64,000 bases of DNA from Chloroflexota bacterium. GTDB taxonomy: Bacteria > Chloroflexota > Anaerolineae > Anaerolineales > VGOW01. Positions 7,441 to 61,384 of this stretch are shown here, piece after piece (position 1 is the stretch's first letter; each line of letters opens with the position of its first letter). The notes under the pieces were generated by a model that did not search any database, was not told the DNA's origin, and worked only from the letters and a program-made list of their open reading frames with translations. Both the position numbers and the translations under genes were made by a program. Where the stretch lies: the NCBI GenBank assembly GCA_016197225.1, contig JACPWC010000009.1, forward strand, positions 357 through 64,356, read 5' to 3'.

Positions 7441-7507
7441 AAAAGTCAGGCGGCACTTTAGCAGAGTTTGGAGAGGGGTCAAGGTGGATGAATGGCTAGC
7501 AAGATGT

Positions 7508-7942
7508 GTTCAAGTGAGCCTGTAAGCCGCTTTCTGTGCCTCTTGCGAGGCGGCGATCATCTCTCTGGGCCGGACATTACTGCCCGGCTCGTGCGGTCTA
7601 CCCGAGGCTCAAACGCTGCGAGCAACAGCTCGCCTCTGCTCGATCTTGCTCCCGGCGGGGGTTGCCTGGCCGCTCGCGTTGCCGCGAGCGCCGGTGGTCT
7701 CTTACACCACCGTTTCACCCTCACCTGGATTGCTGATTTTTGATTGTTGATTTCTGATTGCCGCTTTAGGCGAACAATCATCATTCAGAAATCATCAATC
7801 AGCAATCCAGGCACTACGCTTCTCTGTGGCCCTCTTCCAGCAGGTTGCCCCGCTCCGGGCGTTACCCGGCGCCGTGCTCTGTGGAGAGCGGACTTTCCTC
7901 GACGCGCCCGAAGACGCGCCGCGATCACCCGGCTCACTTGAA
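7508..7942 (-). ncRNA. rnpB: RNase P RNA, bacterial type A, with a greatly extended P12
   Basis: The reverse complement contains GAGGAAAGUCCGC (7889-7900 on +), GGUAACGCC, ACAGAGAA, GGGUGAAACGGUG, GUAAGAGACCACC and ACAGAAAGCGGCUUACAG. The P1 pairing CAAGUGAGCC/GGCUCACUUG defines the ends to within a few nt. Confidence 0.9.
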
Positions 7943-54584: not shown

Positions 54585-55940
54585 ATGTACCCTTCCACCA
54601 CTGTCACCTGCCCTAACTGCAAAACGCCATTTGTTGCGCAGATCGAGCAAGTCTTCGACGTAGGGCTGGACCCGTCGGCCAAAGCCCGGTTCCTGCGCGG
54701 CCACTTCAACGTCATCACCTGCCCGCGTTGCCGTTATCAATCCATGATCGCCACGCCCATCGTCTACCACGACCCGGCCAAAGAATTGTTGCTGACGTTT
54801 GTGCCGATGGAACTTGGCCTGCCGCAGGCCGAGCAGGAACGCATGCTGGGCAATCTCACCAAAGCCATTGTCAACAGTTTGCCGCCCGAACAACGCAAAG
54901 GCTACTTGCTCCGCCCGACTCCGGCGCTGACTCTGCAGGGCATGATTGACCGGGTGCTGGAATCTGACGGCGTCACCAAAGAGATGATGGACGCCCAGCG
55001 GGCCAAAGTGTCGCTGATCGAGCAGTTCCTGACGACTACGAGTGAGGAGGCGCTGGCGGCGCTGGCGAAGGAGCACGACGCCGAACTCGATTATGGCTTC
55101 TTTGATCTGTTCACGGCTGCCATTCAGGCCGCCGCCGAAAGCGGCGACCGGGCTGGGGCCGAGCAGATGCTGGCCCTTCGCAACAAGGTGGTGGAACTGT
55201 CGTCGTTGGGCAAACAGTCGGCCCAGCAGGCGCATTTGTTTGAGGCAACCGCCGAGGAACTCAACAAGCTGGATGACAAGCTCACGCCAGAGTTATTCTT
55301 CGACATGGTGGTGAAAGCCGACAGTGAAGACCGGGCTTCGGCCCTGGTGTCGCTGGCCCGGCCCCTGGTGGATTACGACTTCTTCATGAAGCTCACCAAG
55401 CTGATCAATCAATCGCCCGACAAGGAACGCGAGCGCCTGCAAAAGTTGCGTGACCTGATTCTGAACGTGGTGGGCCAGGTGGATCAGGCGGCGCAGGCCC
55501 AGGGTCAGCAGGCGGCCAACCTGCTTCGCAAACTGCTGGAAGCGCCCGACCTCAAGCAGGCAGTGATGGAGAACCTGCCGCTGATTGACAACACCTTCAT
55601 GGCTATTCTCAACCAGAACTTTGACGCGGCCAGGAAAGCCGGGCGCAACGATGTGGCCGAGAAGCTCCAGCAAATTGGCGACGCCATCCTGAGTCTCATC
55701 CGCGATTCGGCTCCGCCGGAGATCAAACTCATCAATGAACTGCTGGGGTTCGAGACTGAAGAAGAGTCGCTCGAGGCCGTCCAGCGGCGCTCGGCAGAGA
55801 TCACGCCGCCGGTGATCGAGGCCATGAAACAGGTGGAGCAGGAGTTGAACGGCTCCGACCGCAAGGACGTGGCCGAGCGGCTGGGCAAGATTCGGGCCGC
55901 CGCCGAGCGCCAGGCCATGCTGGCCAAATGGAAGGCCTGA
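54585..55940 (+). CDS. CpXC-domain protein with long helical C-terminal region
   Basis: Two CPxC motifs (TCPNCKT ... TCPRCRY) in the first 50 aa. Confidence 0.7.
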   Translation: MYPSTTVTCPNCKTPFVAQIEQVFDVGLDPSAKARFLRGHFNVITCPRCRYQSMIATPIVYHDPAKELLLTFVPMELGLPQAEQERMLGNLTKAIVNSLPPEQRKGYLLRPTPALTLQGMIDRVLESDGVTKEMMDAQRAKVSLIEQFLTTTSEEALAALAKEHDAELDYGFFDLFTAAIQAAAESGDRAGAEQMLALRNKVVELSSLGKQSAQQAHLFEATAEELNKLDDKLTPELFFDMVVKADSEDRASALVSLARPLVDYDFFMKLTKLINQSPDKERERLQKLRDLILNVVGQVDQAAQAQGQQAANLLRKLLEAPDLKQAVMENLPLIDNTFMAILNQNFDAARKAGRNDVAEKLQQIGDAILSLIRDSAPPEIKLINELLGFETEEESLEAVQRRSAEITPPVIEAMKQVEQELNGSDRKDVAERLGKIRAAAERQAMLAKWKA

Positions 55941-55973
55941 GCCGGTCACTACTCAACAACATTTTTCCTGCAG

Positions 55974-56002
55974 AGACGCGCCGCTGGCGCGTCTTTGGTT
56001 TT
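55974..56002 (+). terminator. Rho-independent terminator
   Basis: AGACGCGCC-GCTG-GGCGCGTCT followed by TTGGTTTT. Confidence 0.7.
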
Positions 56003-56075
56003 CATCCAACCCTGATGCCGTTGTAATTCCAGTGTAAGGATTGCGGCCTACACTGGCCCTCAAAAGGAGAGTAGG

Positions 56076-56654
56076 ATGAACAAACTCTGGCTTTTCGGAT
56101 TGAGCCTCGTGGCCGTCTTGCTCATCGCGCTGGGTTCGTTTGCCATTGGCAAGCAACCGGGCACGCCGGCAACGGCCTCAGACACAACCACTGAGATCAA
56201 CTTGAAGAACTACGGCCCCGCGCCCGAACTGAACAACAAAGTGTGGCTGAACACCGACGCGCCTCTGCGCTTGAAAGATTTGCGCGGCAAGGTGGTGCTG
56301 ATTGACTTCTGGACGTTTGGCTGAATTAATTGCCGGAATGTGATTCCCTCGGTGAGGGAATGGCACAACACTTACGGCCCTCAAGGGCTGGTCGTCATCG
56401 GCAACCACTACCCGGAATTTAACTACGAAGCTGATCTCGACAACCTCAAAGAGGCCATCGTCCGGTTGGATGTGCCGTACGCCGTTGCTCAGGACAACGA
56501 CGCCCAAACCTGGTCGGCTTACCGGGTGCGTTACTGGCCGACGCTGGTTCTCATTGACAAGCAGGGCGACATCCGTTACCAACACATCGGCGAAGGCCGC
56601 TACGAGGAGACCGAAGCGGCGATTAAGGCGCTTCTGGCTGAAACATATCCCTGA
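56076..56654 (+). CDS. Membrane-anchored TlpA/DipZ-like thiol-disulfide oxidoreductase with in-frame TGA at the first position of the CxxC motif (candidate Sec-x-x-Cys selenoprotein, or a nonsense pseudogene)
   Basis: ORFs 56076..56324 and 56340..56654 share one frame. Read-through gives LRGKVVLIDFWTFG-TGA-INCRNVIPSVREWH...YWPTLVLIDKQG..., a thioredoxin-fold redoxin pattern. SD AAGGAGAG lies before the ATG. Confidence 0.6.
56340..56366 (+). promoter_or_regulatory. SECIS-like hairpin 15 nt downstream of the in-frame TGA
   Basis: GUG-AUUCCCU-CGGUG-AGGGAAU-(GG bulge)-CAC: a 7-bp upper stem, a 5-nt G/U-containing apical loop, and a 3-bp lower stem. Confidence 0.4.
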
Positions 56655-56677: not shown

Positions 56678-56716
56678 TAAAAAAAACATCCCCGCCTCGC
56701 CGGGGATGTTTTTTTG
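56678..56716. terminator. Bidirectional rho-independent terminator
   Basis: AAAAAAAA-CATCCCCG-loop-CGGGGATG-TTTTTTT between convergent genes. Confidence 0.8.
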
Positions 56717-56727
56717 TCAGGGGTTCC

Positions 56728-59394
56728 TTACGGAAGAGTCCAGAAATTGCGCACCGCCGACCACTGGCTGATCTGCGTCACGCCGCCGCTGGCGCTCACC
56801 GCCCGAACGCGCCAGTAGTAGTGTGTAAGCGCGGTCAGATCCGTCTCGACGGTGTAAGCCGACAACTGCGTCACCCCACCCCGCCCCCGGCCCAGGATAG
56901 TGCCAAAGTTCGGATCATCAGAAATTTGCACTTCGTAGTGAGTGGCGGCTGGCGATGAGTCGCTCCAGTCCAACGTCGGCTTCCTGGTGGTCACGGTAGC
57001 GCCGTTGGCGGGCAAGAGCAGGGTTGGCACACTTGGCGGGTTGGCGCTGTAGAAGTGCCGGGTGCGCGACCACTGGCCGGTGTTGCCGCTGACATTGCCC
57101 CGCACTCGCCAGTAGAGCAGGGTGTTGCGCGGCAGGTCAATCGTCGGCGTGTAAGCTGAAGCCGAGAGGTTTATATTCACGACCAGCGCCGTGAAGCTGG
57201 AGTTGGTGGCGATCTGGAAGGTGTAAGACGTTGCGCCAGAGATGTTAGCCCAGTCGAACAGCGGGCGGGTGGTGGAGGCGGTGTTGCCGCTGGACGGGAA
57301 GCGCATGGTGGCCGCCGGTAGTTGCGTGAAGGTGGGCGTTGGGCCGGGCGTGTTGGTGGGCGTGTTGCTGGGCGTAAAGGTGGCCGTCGGCGTGTTGGTG
57401 GGAGTGTTGGTCGGTGTATTCGTCGGAGTATTGGTAGGGGTATTCGTGGGCGTGTAGGTCGGCGTATTTGTTGGCGTGGGCGTGTTCGTGGGCGGAACCG
57501 GATACGACGCCACGAAGCTATGCGTGCCCGAGGCTACGGTAACAAATGCCACATTCACGCCTTTGATGGTCTGGGTTCCGAAGGATGTTGAGTTGCCGTC
57601 CACTGTGATCGATTGCAGAACGTTGCCGTTATAACTGAGCGGCAGGATCGTCGTCAGGTTGGCGCCAGGGGCGGCGGTCATGTTGAACGTCAACACACCT
57701 GTGCCGCTGTTGAAGGCCACTTCGGAATACTCGGCGTTGTGACGAGTCTCGGTAAAGGTGAGCCAATTGTCGGCGTTCCAGATTGGAACGTTGTTGGCGG
57801 TGGCGTAGTCCAGCGTGCCTTCTGTCCACGGCTGAGGATTGCCAAAGTTGTAATAATCCACGTGGATCTGAACCATCAGGGCCGCATAGTCTCCGGCGTT
57901 GCTGGCGTCAATCATCCCTTCTGAAACACTCAGCGCCTGCGCGGATGTAAGTTGCTCGCTATCAAAGCCGGCCAGATCGTAAAGATCAAAAAGCTGTTCG
58001 TCCACTAACTGGGTTAATTGCTGGTAGTAATCCAGAATAGTGCCGTCGGCCTTAATGAACTTCATTGGCTGTCCACTGCCGGTAATGTAGCCGTGCGGCC
58101 AGCTATTGTCTGGCTTCTTGAGCCACTGGCCCCAGTGATAAAAATTGGTGTCCATCGCCATGCCGTGCGCCACAGCAATGTCGGCGGCGTCCGTCCAGCC
58201 CTGCCAACTGATTTGATGGGTGCGCACGGTGCGCGACATGGGAATCGGCGGGTCGTAAAAGAGGCCAAAAGCGTTGACCGAGTCGGTGTACCCTTGATTC
58301 AGGGCAGCATACGTCATGGTGCTGGGTGGGTTACGGTAAGGATGCATCCCGAATTCGTGCCCCTGGCTCCGCCACGTTTCCATCACGCTTGTATCAATAA
58401 TGCCGCCGCCGGTGGCCATGTAAAACGTCGCGTCGCCGCCGTGGTTGTTCAGGCTGGTAATCTCAGTCTGATAAAAACTTTCGGGGTTGGCATGAGCATC
58501 CGCCGTTAAGATCAGCATGGTCTTGGCCGAGGCGGGGAAGTACCAGAGTTGCGGGATGGGTTTGACCTGGGCAACCATTTGCTTGACGAGGCGGGCAAAG
58601 AGGCGCTGTTGCTCGTCGGCCTGCGGCACGGGGATGCGGTCTCTGTTTACCCACGAGCCATTGCCGGCAAGTTGGAAAAGGTCAATCGTTCGTAAGACGC
58701 CGTCGCCATCAATATCGCCGTCTACACCCGCCGGGTTGCCCTGGCGGGTATAAACGACATTGCTTGCGAGATCGTAAGTGAAGGCCACGGCCCGCCCGGC
58801 GCTATTGCTGACGACGGCCGGGTAGCTGGTGGCAGTGGAAGCGTCACTGTAGAGGGTGGCGACGGTGATGGACCCGATCAGGGTGTTGTATTTCGTGGCA
58901 TCGCCGTGAATTTGAAGCGTTTGAGTAGAGAGGCCTGCGCCGGGCGCTTCGCCGTTGATGGTGGCTGTGTCACTGATTTTGAGATAGCCATCCGTTAAGT
59001 TTCCGGCGGTTGTGCCGAGATCGAACAAGTTGGCGATGTTAGGATCAGGCCGCAGGGCGAGGAGGCGGCCACCCCCGCTCACGTAGTTGGTGAGGGTCGT
59101 GTCCTGAGCGGAGGTCAGAGTCGTTTCAGCCAGGATCGCCACGTCGTGCTTGTTTAACTCCGTCAGTGTCATTGCGCCGATGGTCAGCACTTCAAATTCG
59201 TTGAGGCCTTCGGCCCGCAGAATTTCGCCCAGGTAGCGTCCGAACTTGTTGGCCGCCGCGTCGTTGACAATGAGAACGATGGGAGCCGGGATGGGAACAG
59301 CCTGGGTGGGGGCCGGCCGCCACAGGTTGAAGAGCAAGACGGCGATGATAGTGACGGCGAACCATTTCCAGAAGAGTGACCGAGAAGGGCGCAT
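56728..59394 (-). CDS. Secreted multidomain protein: N-terminal anchor, about 620-aa enzyme-like region, Pro/Thr linker, shared tandem FN3-like C-terminal module
   Basis: N-terminal hydrophobic anchor, the linker [24 protein letters not shown]..., and a C-terminal about 195 aa paralogous to the next two genes (PLFDWANI...SYTFQI...LYWRVR...[20 protein letters not shown]...YYWRVRA). Confidence 0.7.
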   Translation of the reverse strand: MRPSRSLFWKWFAVTIIAVLLFNLWRPAPTQAVPIPAPIVLIVNDAAANKFGRYLGEILRAEGLNEFEVLTIGAMTLTELNKHDVAILAETTLTSAQDTTLTNYVSGGGRLLALRPDPNIANLFDLGTTAGNLTDGYLKISDTATINGEAPGAGLSTQTLQIHGDATKYNTLIGSITVATLYSDASTATSYPAVVSNSAGRAVAFTYDLASNVVYTRQGNPAGVDGDIDGDGVLRTIDLFQLAGNGSWVNRDRIPVPQADEQQRLFARLVKQMVAQVKPIPQLWYFPASAKTMLILTADAHANPESFYQTEITSLNNHGGDATFYMATGGGIIDTSVMETWRSQGHEFGMHPYRNPPSTMTYAALNQGYTDSVNAFGLFYDPPIPMSRTVRTHQISWQGWTDAADIAVAHGMAMDTNFYHWGQWLKKPDNSWPHGYITGSGQPMKFIKADGTILDYYQQLTQLVDEQLFDLYDLAGFDSEQLTSAQALSVSEGMIDASNAGDYAALMVQIHVDYYNFGNPQPWTEGTLDYATANNVPIWNADNWLTFTETRHNAEYSEVAFNSGTGVLTFNMTAAPGANLTTILPLSYNGNVLQSITVDGNSTSFGTQTIKGVNVAFVTVASGTHSFVASYPVPPTNTPTPTNTPTYTPTNTPTNTPTNTPTNTPTNTPTATFTPSNTPTNTPGPTPTFTQLPAATMRFPSSGNTASTTRPLFDWANISGATSYTFQIATNSSFTALVVNINLSASAYTPTIDLPRNTLLYWRVRGNVSGNTGQWSRTRHFYSANPPSVPTLLLPANGATVTTRKPTLDWSDSSPAATHYEVQISDDPNFGTILGRGRGGVTQLSAYTVETDLTALTHYYWRVRAVSASGGVTQISQWSAVRNFWTLP

Positions 59395-59542: not shown

Positions 59543-61384
59543 TCAGGGTGTTCTAAAGCTACTCACTGCCGACCACTGGCTGACCTGCGCCGTGCCCCCA
59601 TTGATATTTACGGCTCGCACCCGCCAGTGGTAGAGCGTGAGCGGGGTCAGATCCGTTTCAACCATGTACGCCGACCGGGGAGTCACCCCACCCTGCCCGC
59701 GCCCCAGAAGAACGCTAAAATTAATGTCTTTGGAAATTTGAACTTCGTAATAGGTGGCGGCCGGGGACGAGTCACCCCAGTCCAGTGTCGGCTTCAGCGA
59801 TGTCGCGTTGGCGTTGTTGGCGGGCGAAATCAGCATCGGCACGCCCGGCGGGTTGGCGCTGTAGAAGTAGCGGGTGCGCGACCAGGCGCCGGGTCTGCCG
59901 CCGGCGTTGCCTCGCACGCGCCAGTACAGAATAGTATTGCGCGGCAGATCGGCGGTCGGGGTGTAAGCCGACACCGAGACGTTTATATTCAACACCAACA
60001 TGGTGAAGCCGGGGTTGGTAGAGAGTTGGAAAGTGTATGAGGTGAGCGACGGGCTGGTGATGTTGGCCCAGTCGAAGAGCGGGCGCGTGTTGGGCGGCGT
60101 GTTGCCGCTGGACGGGAAATTCATGGTGGCCGCCGGTAGTTGCGTGGGCGTGGGCGACGGGCCGGGCGTATTGGTAGGCGTGTTGGTGGGCGTATTAGTT
60201 GCCGTCGGCGTGTTGGTGGGTGGCGACGTGTTGGTAGGTGTGCTGGTCGGCGTGTTTGTTGGGGTGTTAGTGAATGTGCTTGAAGGTGTGTGAGTTGGGG
60301 TTGCGACAACGTCGTTCAACGACACCGAGTCGACGCGGGGTGAGATGGTGGAATCAGTGGTCGAGAGAATCAGTTTGTACTTGAGATAGCGATGCAGTTG
60401 GCCGCCGAAGGAAACGCCGCTCGTGGCATTAGTAAAAGCGCCAAAGGCAAGGCCGTCGTCTGAAGTGCTCACCTGTACGGTAACACCCGTGTTGGCGGGT
60501 TTGTTTTCAACCCAGCTAATTGTGTCCCAAACATTGCCGGTTTGAGCATCCAAAACACAACTAACAAATTCGCCGGTGAGCTTGTAAGTAGGCGTAACCT
60601 GGATGTTGTCTACTTTCAGGTCAACTGTGCTGTTATTAGAAATATAAGCGAGAAAATTCTCCCCATTAACACCGCCATGCAGAACGTTGAAATCAATTTT
60701 ATAAGCACCATCCACGTAAAAAGTAATCACATCATCAGTCGCATCGAATTGCGCCCATTCAATTCGGTAACGATGCGGGCCATCAATTGTGCCTAGCAAG
60801 ACAAACTGCTCAGAGCCGCTATTGTTGGCCCGGGCATATAATTTCCCGTCATTGAGACCTGTTGCCGGGTTCCTGGTGCTGACAATATAGTAGCGGTTGG
60901 TGCCAAAATCGTCGCGGGCAAAGCCAATATGTTGAAAAGCCCCATTGCCAAACTCGGCGGTAAATTCCATGACCGCGTAGGTATATGTTGTGGTTGAGCG
61001 TAAAAATGCTTGATCATTGCCCGCGATGGTCAAAATGCTATTAGCGATACCAGGCGTAGTATATGCCCCGCCTGCCCAAAGCAAAGCATCCCAGTTGGTA
61101 GCATTAAGTGACGAGCCGGGGAAATCATCAGCAAAATTGGCGGCGAGGGTGACGGTGCCGCCTGTGCCGTCGGTGGCATCAATGTCGGTGATGTGAGCGG
61201 TGTTCGTGTCTACGCAACCTGTGAAGTCGGCGCGGGTGGTGTGATTGATCGGGAGGGCCATGAAGGGCCGGGCCACCGGGCGGTGGCCAAAGGCGGCTAA
61301 CACAGGCCGCCAGATGCCTGACATGAGAATGACAATGCTAGTGATGGCAATGAGTTTCCAGGGGGATTTGTAGTTAGTGTGCAT
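59543..61384 (-). CDS. Secreted protein: ConA-like lectin/glucanase-type N-terminal domain, Pro/Thr linker, shared C-terminal module
   Basis: N-terminal anchor. DDFPGSSLNATNWD...RYRIEWAQFDATDDVITFYVDG suggests a LamG/ConA-like fold. Same C-terminal module as its neighbours. Confidence 0.7.
   Translation of the reverse strand: MHTNYKSPWKLIAITSIVILMSGIWRPVLAAFGHRPVARPFMALPINHTTRADFTGCVDTNTAHITDIDATDGTGGTVTLAANFADDFPGSSLNATNWDALLWAGGAYTTPGIANSILTIAGNDQAFLRSTTTYTYAVMEFTAEFGNGAFQHIGFARDDFGTNRYYIVSTRNPATGLNDGKLYARANNSGSEQFVLLGTIDGPHRYRIEWAQFDATDDVITFYVDGAYKIDFNVLHGGVNGENFLAYISNNSTVDLKVDNIQVTPTYKLTGEFVSCVLDAQTGNVWDTISWVENKPANTGVTVQVSTSDDGLAFGAFTNATSGVSFGGQLHRYLKYKLILSTTDSTISPRVDSVSLNDVVATPTHTPSSTFTNTPTNTPTSTPTNTSPPTNTPTATNTPTNTPTNTPGPSPTPTQLPAATMNFPSSGNTPPNTRPLFDWANITSPSLTSYTFQLSTNPGFTMLVLNINVSVSAYTPTADLPRNTILYWRVRGNAGGRPGAWSRTRYFYSANPPGVPMLISPANNANATSLKPTLDWGDSSPAATYYEVQISKDINFSVLLGRGQGGVTPRSAYMVETDLTPLTLYHWRVRAVNINGGTAQVSQWSAVSSFRTP

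Follow-up and report, generated by a model that had tools for sequence, protein, structure and literature searches.

Redoxins with selenocysteine (Sec) at the first position of a UxxC motif have been catalogued as the 'Redoxin family protein' (PF08534) and the 'Prx-like thiol:disulfide oxidoreductase' (PF00578) (PMC13188914, Table 1; PMC9312934; PMC1794560). In the published model of the bacterial SECIS element (bSECIS; PMC13188914, Fig. 2A), an apical loop of 3 to 9 nt with a G in its first two positions is carried on an upper stem of 4 to 16 bp, the distance from UGA to loop is 16 to 37 nt, and the MFE is -7.5 kcal/mol or lower. Sec decoding has been recorded in Chloroflexi/Chloroflexota (PMC1794560, PMC13326102). 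Some Dehalococcoidia MAGs have 46 to 49 predicted selenoproteins, and one Methylomirabilota MAG has 63 (PMC1794560, PMC13326102, PMC13188914); in the literature we found nothing direct on Sec use specifically in Anaerolineae.

The gene described here lies in a 64,000-nucleotide stretch of DNA, hereafter the window, and resembles the catalogued UxxC redoxins closely. It has the same Pfam domains, a single predicted Sec at the first position of the motif, Cys homologues that are in the majority, and a SECIS-like element directly downstream inside the coding sequence. The group to which it belongs (WTFG-U-INC, DipZ-C-like, mainly Anaerolineae) was likened to the catalogued families by domain and motif. 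UxxC selenoproteins of the TlpA-like/redoxin type and their SECIS elements are already well described, and current understanding is unchanged by this locus. The preliminary description of this DNA had called Sec at the first CxxC position the rule. UxxC is indeed what we see here, but the statement was too strong: thioredoxin-like selenoproteins with CxxU are also listed (PMC13188914).

A redoxin gene interrupted by one TGA

A mechanical search of the window splits the gene into two ORFs, 56076-56324 (82 aa) and 56340-56654 (104 aa, GTG start). These had been read as one frame broken only by the TGA at 56322-56324, and translation confirmed this: the two ORFs share an identical frame, 56076-56654 (+), of 192 codons plus a stop, and the TGA is its sole internal stop. 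Read-through around this codon gives VVLIDFWTFG, the TGA and then INCRNVIPSVREW. The frame, the Pfam and DipZ matches described below and conservation point to a complete selenoprotein coding sequence at 56076-56654 (+) for a TlpA/ResA/DipZ-C-like thioredoxin-fold redoxin, with Sec as codon 83. A Shine-Dalgarno-like AAGGAG, read from the sequence, lies at 56064-56069 (+), 6 nt before the ATG. The N terminus is hydrophobic: codons at 56076-56150 (+) encode the segment MNKLWLFGLSLVAVLLIALGSFAIG, a candidate signal peptide or signal anchor. Similar leaders occur in homologues, many of them of the lipobox type with a lipobox Cys. The window protein is probably exported or membrane-anchored through this segment.

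What residue do relatives have at the interrupted position? Cys stands there in 117 of the 120 best homologues (52-80% identical), within the motif W-T-F-[GDAS]-C-[IYV]-N-C. The in-frame UGA (56322-56324, +) thus aligns with a Cys of non-selenoprotein homologues and, as had been proposed, falls exactly on the first, nucleophilic Cys, which makes it the predicted first position of a U-I-N-C redox motif; TGA orthologues, described below, point the same way. The remaining 3 of the 120 read W-T-[FY]-G-W-I-N-C. Trp in these three presumably arose when a gene caller translated TGA as Trp, and they would then be hidden Sec forms. The Trp-bearing database proteins (WTFGWINC) are P0072, P0084 and P0104.

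Among genuine stops in the window, TGA is the most frequent and ends 19 of 38 long ORFs. Hence, TGA has not been generally reassigned. We also scanned 102 mechanical candidates for other TGA-split ORF pairs in the window and found no further convincing one.

When Cys was put at the TGA, Pfam searches matched AhpC-TSA (6e-13), Thioredoxin_8 (1.5e-9) and Redoxin (1.6e-9). PF08534, PF13905 and PF00578 all exceeded their gathering scores, with 49.2, 38.5 and 38.1 bits against cut-offs of 26, 27 and 26.6 (figures in the order reported). With the redox motif at its expected position, these domain scores mark the protein as a TlpA-like thioredoxin-fold redoxin. NCBIfam similarity was weak (ResA, 2e-15; DsbE, 1.6e-7; TlpA, 1.7e-5) and fell below every equivalog cut-off: 57 versus 170 bits for ResA, 31 versus 359 for DsbE and 25 versus 230 for TlpA. 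TlpA, ResA and DsbE (CcmG) share with the window protein the thioredoxin fold, a CxxC-type motif and, as predicted for the window protein, an N-terminal anchor, but no cytochrome c maturation genes lie near the window gene. Judged by its sequence, we conclude, the protein is a TlpA-like redoxin and not a ResA, DsbE or TlpA equivalog.

Among solved structures, the best match was the C-terminal domain of Mycobacterium tuberculosis DipZ (Rv2874; 2hyx/5cyy), with E = 1.3e-38 over residues 38-191; human NHLRC2 and plant SOQ1 came next, followed by YkuV, ResA, TlpA and CcmG. The DipZ match is strong enough to fix the fold. DipZ and the window protein have in common FW-x-x-x-CINC-x-x-x-IP, with U for the first C in the window protein, and a C-terminal GEG-Y motif. 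The preliminary description had given the DipZ motif as FWTYSCINCQR. Its CINC part is right, but PDB 2hyx reads FWAYSCINCQR, which is close enough. DipZ has Cys where the window protein has the predicted Sec, and its redoxin domain is preceded by a fused CcdA-like membrane domain and followed by extra C-terminal sequence, a carbohydrate-binding module. The window protein is a stand-alone redoxin with a hydrophobic leader; its 192 aa match only residues 48-202 of the 352 in 2hyx_A, short of the full-length DipZ architecture, and the window holds no DsbD_TM-like gene.

The hairpin downstream of the TGA in the window and its relatives

A SECIS-like hairpin had been described at 56340-56366, and we find it there with lower stem, bulge and upper stem. 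The upper stem (56343-56350/56354-56361) has 8 Watson-Crick pairs and closes a GGU loop (56351-56353); GUG at 56340-56342 pairs with CAC at 56364-56366 to form the lower stem, next to a GG bulge at 56362-56363. The upper stem begins 18 nt past the TGA, and 26 nt separate the UGA from the loop. The upper stem by itself folds with -9.6 kcal/mol, and the whole of 56340-56366 with -15.0 kcal/mol. All four constraints of the bSECIS model accommodate the element: the 3-nt GGU loop, the 8 bp, the 26-nt distance and the energies of -9.6/-15.0 kcal/mol. Taken alone, the hairpin is modestly unusual (z = -2.2; 5 of 200 shuffles fold as well), and of the 2271 TGA triplets in the window, 22 (~1%) precede a hairpin that has SECIS geometry and 8 bp or more. 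No SECIS-type Rfam match appeared in the window at the gathering threshold or in 56200-56500 at E up to 10. Fold, conservation, covariation, synonymous constraint and the published model together mark 56340-56366 (+) as a predicted bacterial SECIS element.

The E. coli fdhF-type SECIS likewise lies inside its coding sequence, as a stem-loop directly 3' of the UGA whose small apical loop contains G and U. It differs in that there is no sequence similarity and the upper stem of the window element has no bulged U. The loop differs as well, being 3 nt in the group described here (GGU or GUU) and AGUU in the related long family. This comparison draws on general knowledge plus the consensus model of PMC13188914.

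We scanned one genome per bacterial or archaeal species for the DNA-level pattern W-T-F-x-TGA-x-N-C-x-x-x-x-P. The same TGA was present in at least 120 species-level genomes. All 120 listed loci are homologous on both sides of the TGA, and the downstream frame reaches a normal stop wherever the contig allows. Hosts of the listed TGA forms are mostly Chloroflexota (Anaerolineae, Dehalococcoidia, Caldilineales); the others are Rokubacteria/Methylomirabilota, Planctomycetota, Gemmatimonadota, Zixibacteria and further groups. Two subfamilies make up the set. The short secreted one (~190 aa, WTFG-U-INC) comprises 81 listed loci plus the window gene, and in the long one (~500 aa, WTFC-U-INC; 39 listed loci) the thioredoxin-like domain is fused to NHL repeats. 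As a control, we replaced TGA by TGY in the pattern and searched metagenome contigs, which gave 120 Cys forms.

At the fixed offset, a stem 6 bp or longer occurred in 94% of the short TGA forms (n = 82; listed matches plus the window gene) but in 5% of the short Cys forms (n = 77), and in 85% of the long TGA forms (n = 39; listed matches) but in none (0%) of the long Cys forms (n = 42), the TGA set having been sampled from genomes and the Cys set from a different collection, metagenomes. The difference in stem between TGA and Cys forms was highly significant (Mann-Whitney, p = 1e-23 for short and 5e-13 for long forms). Nearly all loops in TGA forms with such a stem are GUU, GGU or AGUU. The preliminary description had suggested looking for TGA at the same codon of orthologues and for a hairpin kept along with it. 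Both were found: the TGA orthologues have intact downstream frames and a conserved SECIS-like hairpin that is largely missing in Cys forms.

The stem also covaries. When the 82 short TGA forms are aligned without gaps, pairing holds in 90% of stem cells; shifting the 3' partner by 1 to 3 columns lowers this to 38-54%. Compensatory double changes affect three stem pairs in the short TGA forms (UA/CG, 58/20; CG/UA, 58/13; CG/GC, 61/12), and compensatory change is seen at four pairs in the long family.

Codon usage gave a further view of the same region. For the residues S-L-R-E, TGA forms use Ser TCG in 60/63 cases, Leu TTG in 59/61, Arg AGG in 57/68 and Glu GAA in 56/57; the corresponding counts in Cys forms are 12/44, 25/63, 3/23 and 20/28. 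Synonymous-codon identity at codons +9 to +12 is 0.72-0.92 in TGA forms versus 0.29-0.54 in Cys forms, and outside these codons it is mostly ~0.3-0.6 in both sets. The same amino acids are thus written with different codon choice. We conclude that conservation of the hairpin is not a by-product of protein conservation.

At the second Cys codon of UxxC (56331-56333 in the window), TGC is far more uniform in TGA than in Cys forms (synonymous identity, 0.86 versus 0.54), a hint that the sequence from the UGA to the SECIS may be constrained.

A rough NJ tree mixes Sec with Cys forms and needs at least 23 changes of state, in line with the frequent Cys/Sec exchange described in the literature. As a natural experiment the comparative set is clean: a single enzyme exists in Sec and Cys forms scattered among each other on the tree, and the SECIS arises and decays with the UGA.

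Several individual loci depart from the general pattern. Two TGA forms (L013:874-924, - strand; L017:6290-6340, + strand) lack a clear stem and encode IPSLREW in different codons. Another (L033:2875-2925, +) has a different hairpin, ACGUGUG-GUUC-CACACGU, about 7 nt nearer the UGA, which may be an independently evolved SECIS. Conversely, the hairpin is nearly complete in a few Cys forms (L147, L164) that are most closely related to TGA forms, as if Sec had recently been converted to Cys and the SECIS were decaying.

The long TGA forms with NHL repeats (39 loci, among them L002, L004-L007, L009, L014, L015, L021, L023 and L030; e.g., L004:183-233) are related to NHLRC2/SOQ1 and have their own covarying SECIS, CUUCCGC-AGUU-GCGGAAG. 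They occur in Dehalococcoidia, Rokubacteria, Planctomycetota and others. The reviews consulted make no mention of NHL.

Selenocysteine and its alternatives

Very probably, the window gene is a functional selenoprotein gene whose UGA at 56322-56324 is decoded as Sec. The encoded protein deviates at none of the 49 columns that are at least 90% conserved among 148 Sec and Cys forms (family mean, 1.3), and among the sequences compared its nearest relatives are TGA forms with 74-76% identity. Together with the conserved, covarying hairpin, these findings favor the earlier preference for Sec over a pseudogene.

Might the gene instead be a relic in an organism that has recently lost its Sec machinery, or might the hairpin drive read-through of the UGA with Trp or Cys? 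Neither the 64-kb window nor ~1.4 Mb of related loci yielded selA, selB, selD or tRNA-Sec. ARAGORN detected no tRNA genes in the window and no tRNA-Sec in the window or any of the related loci. tblastn with approximate E. coli SelA, SelB and SelD queries against the window and 240 loci gave one weak match only. That match, in L073 (23% identity), is probably another AIR-synthase-fold protein and was rejected. Sec genes need not be linked. Two further observations speak for a relic or non-Sec read-through: the ~23 or more Sec/Cys changes on the tree imply frequent losses, and some TGA forms (L013 and L017) have no hairpin. Against it, the window hairpin fits the SelB-type SECIS model, including the G[G/U] loop, and neither protein nor hairpin has decayed in the window copy. 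Moreover, the host phyla Chloroflexota and Methylomirabilota/Rokubacteria are documented Sec users (PMC13326102, PMC13188914). We consider this explanation improbable.

We give still less credence to a pseudogene, in which a TGY-to-TGA nonsense mutation would have killed a Cys-type redoxin gene and left the two ORFs as remnants. In its favor, TGA is one base from TGC or TGT, Cys forms are abundant, and gene callers would split the gene. Such a mutation would not explain a TGA common to at least 120 species whose proteins are only ~60-76% identical and whose downstream frames are intact, a window copy that keeps 49 of 49 conserved residues, or a window hairpin that appears to be under nucleotide-level selection and is largely missing in Cys forms. 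An error of sequencing or assembly can practically be dismissed: single-base errors happen and nothing specific favors one here, the same codon and hairpin recur in at least 120 independent assemblies, and an error would not bring a SECIS along. Because the window copy is intact, has TGA-bearing kin and lies in DNA where TGA is not reassigned, its TGA is very unlikely to stem from a recent nonsense mutation, from decay as a pseudogene or from a sequencing error.

Decoding of the UGA as Sec has consequences mainly for annotation. The 82-aa and 104-aa ORFs are artefacts of a UGA read as stop and should be annotated together as a single selenoprotein gene. The gene would also imply a Sec-decoding trait in the source organism, probably a Chloroflexota bacterium of Anaerolineae type, and use of selenium outside the cytoplasm. 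The MsrPQ-type association described below is a side lead.

Predicted function and gene neighborhood

For the window protein we infer SelB binding, selenium incorporation, topology, substrate and electron donor. By established Sec biology, the loop and upper stem of the 56340-56366 hairpin would bind SelB with Sec-tRNA(Sec) and deliver the Sec-tRNA(Sec) to the ribosome, and UGA 56322-56324 would be decoded as Sec during translation. The predicted product has 192 residues, a U-I-N-C active site and the thioredoxin fold of a TlpA/ResA/DipZ-C-type thiol-disulfide oxidoreductase. By analogy to its family, the Sec83 selenolate would attack a substrate disulfide or an oxidised thiol outside the cytoplasmic membrane, Cys86 would resolve the selenenylsulfide, and a CcdA/DsbD-type membrane electron carrier would re-reduce the enzyme. 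A role in the repair or reduction of oxidised envelope proteins is likely, because orthologues commonly adjoin MsrP-like, MsrQ-like, CcdA and two-component genes.

A frequent gene order in relatives is CcdA (-), a thioredoxin-like lipoprotein (-), response regulator (RR), histidine kinase (HK), Sec-redoxin, MsrP-like molybdoenzyme and MsrQ-like haem membrane protein, sometimes ending with a DsbA-NhaA fusion. Examples are L016, L020, L026, L057, L076, L116 and others, in which the RR is of the OmpR type, the MsrP-like protein is Oxidored_molyb and the MsrQ-like protein is Ferric_reduct. Of the 82 short TGA loci, 30 have an MsrP-like gene as their next downstream neighbor and 25 have an MsrQ-like gene nearby; an MsrQ-like gene is also close by in 23 of the 77 short Cys loci.

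The short Sec-redoxin could conceivably be the selenol partner of a Chloroflexota envelope protein-repair module (RR-HK-[Sec-redoxin]-MsrP-like-MsrQ-like, with a divergent CcdA and a second thioredoxin-like lipoprotein), though we hold this only tentatively. If it were true, an exported selenoprotein would repair oxidised envelope thiols beside methionine-sulfoxide repair, with Sec chosen for its resistance to over-oxidation. We did not find an association of a Sec-redoxin with an MsrPQ module in the literature searched, and it is possibly unreported.

None of the partners of the relatives (MsrP/MsrQ-like, CcdA, RR-HK) is present in the window. We asked whether the upstream histidine kinase is an orthologue of the redoxin-linked kinase and rejected this, as the two share only the kinase core with ~35% identity. 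The window copy has lost, or never had, the MsrPQ-type context. The functional context suggested for the window gene is borrowed from its orthologues, and the MsrPQ link comes from orthologue synteny only.

In the window, the redoxin gene stands alone between two hairpins. The upstream CpXC gene stops at 55940 and is followed at 55971-55997 (+) by a terminator-like hairpin (12-pair stem, 8 G-C pairs) with a T-rich tail, which suggests that the redoxin gene is its own transcription unit. Downstream, 56680-56715 forms a strong predicted bidirectional intrinsic terminator, in which an A-run and a U-run flank the stem CAUCCCCG/CGGGGAUG (-21.9 kcal/mol; z = -5.1; 0 of 200 shuffles as stable). It is common to the redoxin gene and a convergent 888-aa gene at 56728-59394 (-), and a consensus terminator scan missed it.

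The CpXC gene (54585-55940, +), between a GAF-PAS histidine kinase and the redoxin gene, encodes a 451-aa protein with an N-terminal CpXC zinc-ribbon and falls outside the conserved redoxin neighborhood of the relatives. The genes at 56728-59394 (-) and 59543-61384 (-) encode large secreted proteins with long PTNT/PT-repeat linkers and C-terminal Ig_Rha78A_N-like domains, an architecture typical of Chloroflexota surface proteins. Elsewhere in the window, 7507-7940 (-) matches bacterial RNase P RNA class A (Rfam RF00010, 256.9 bits).
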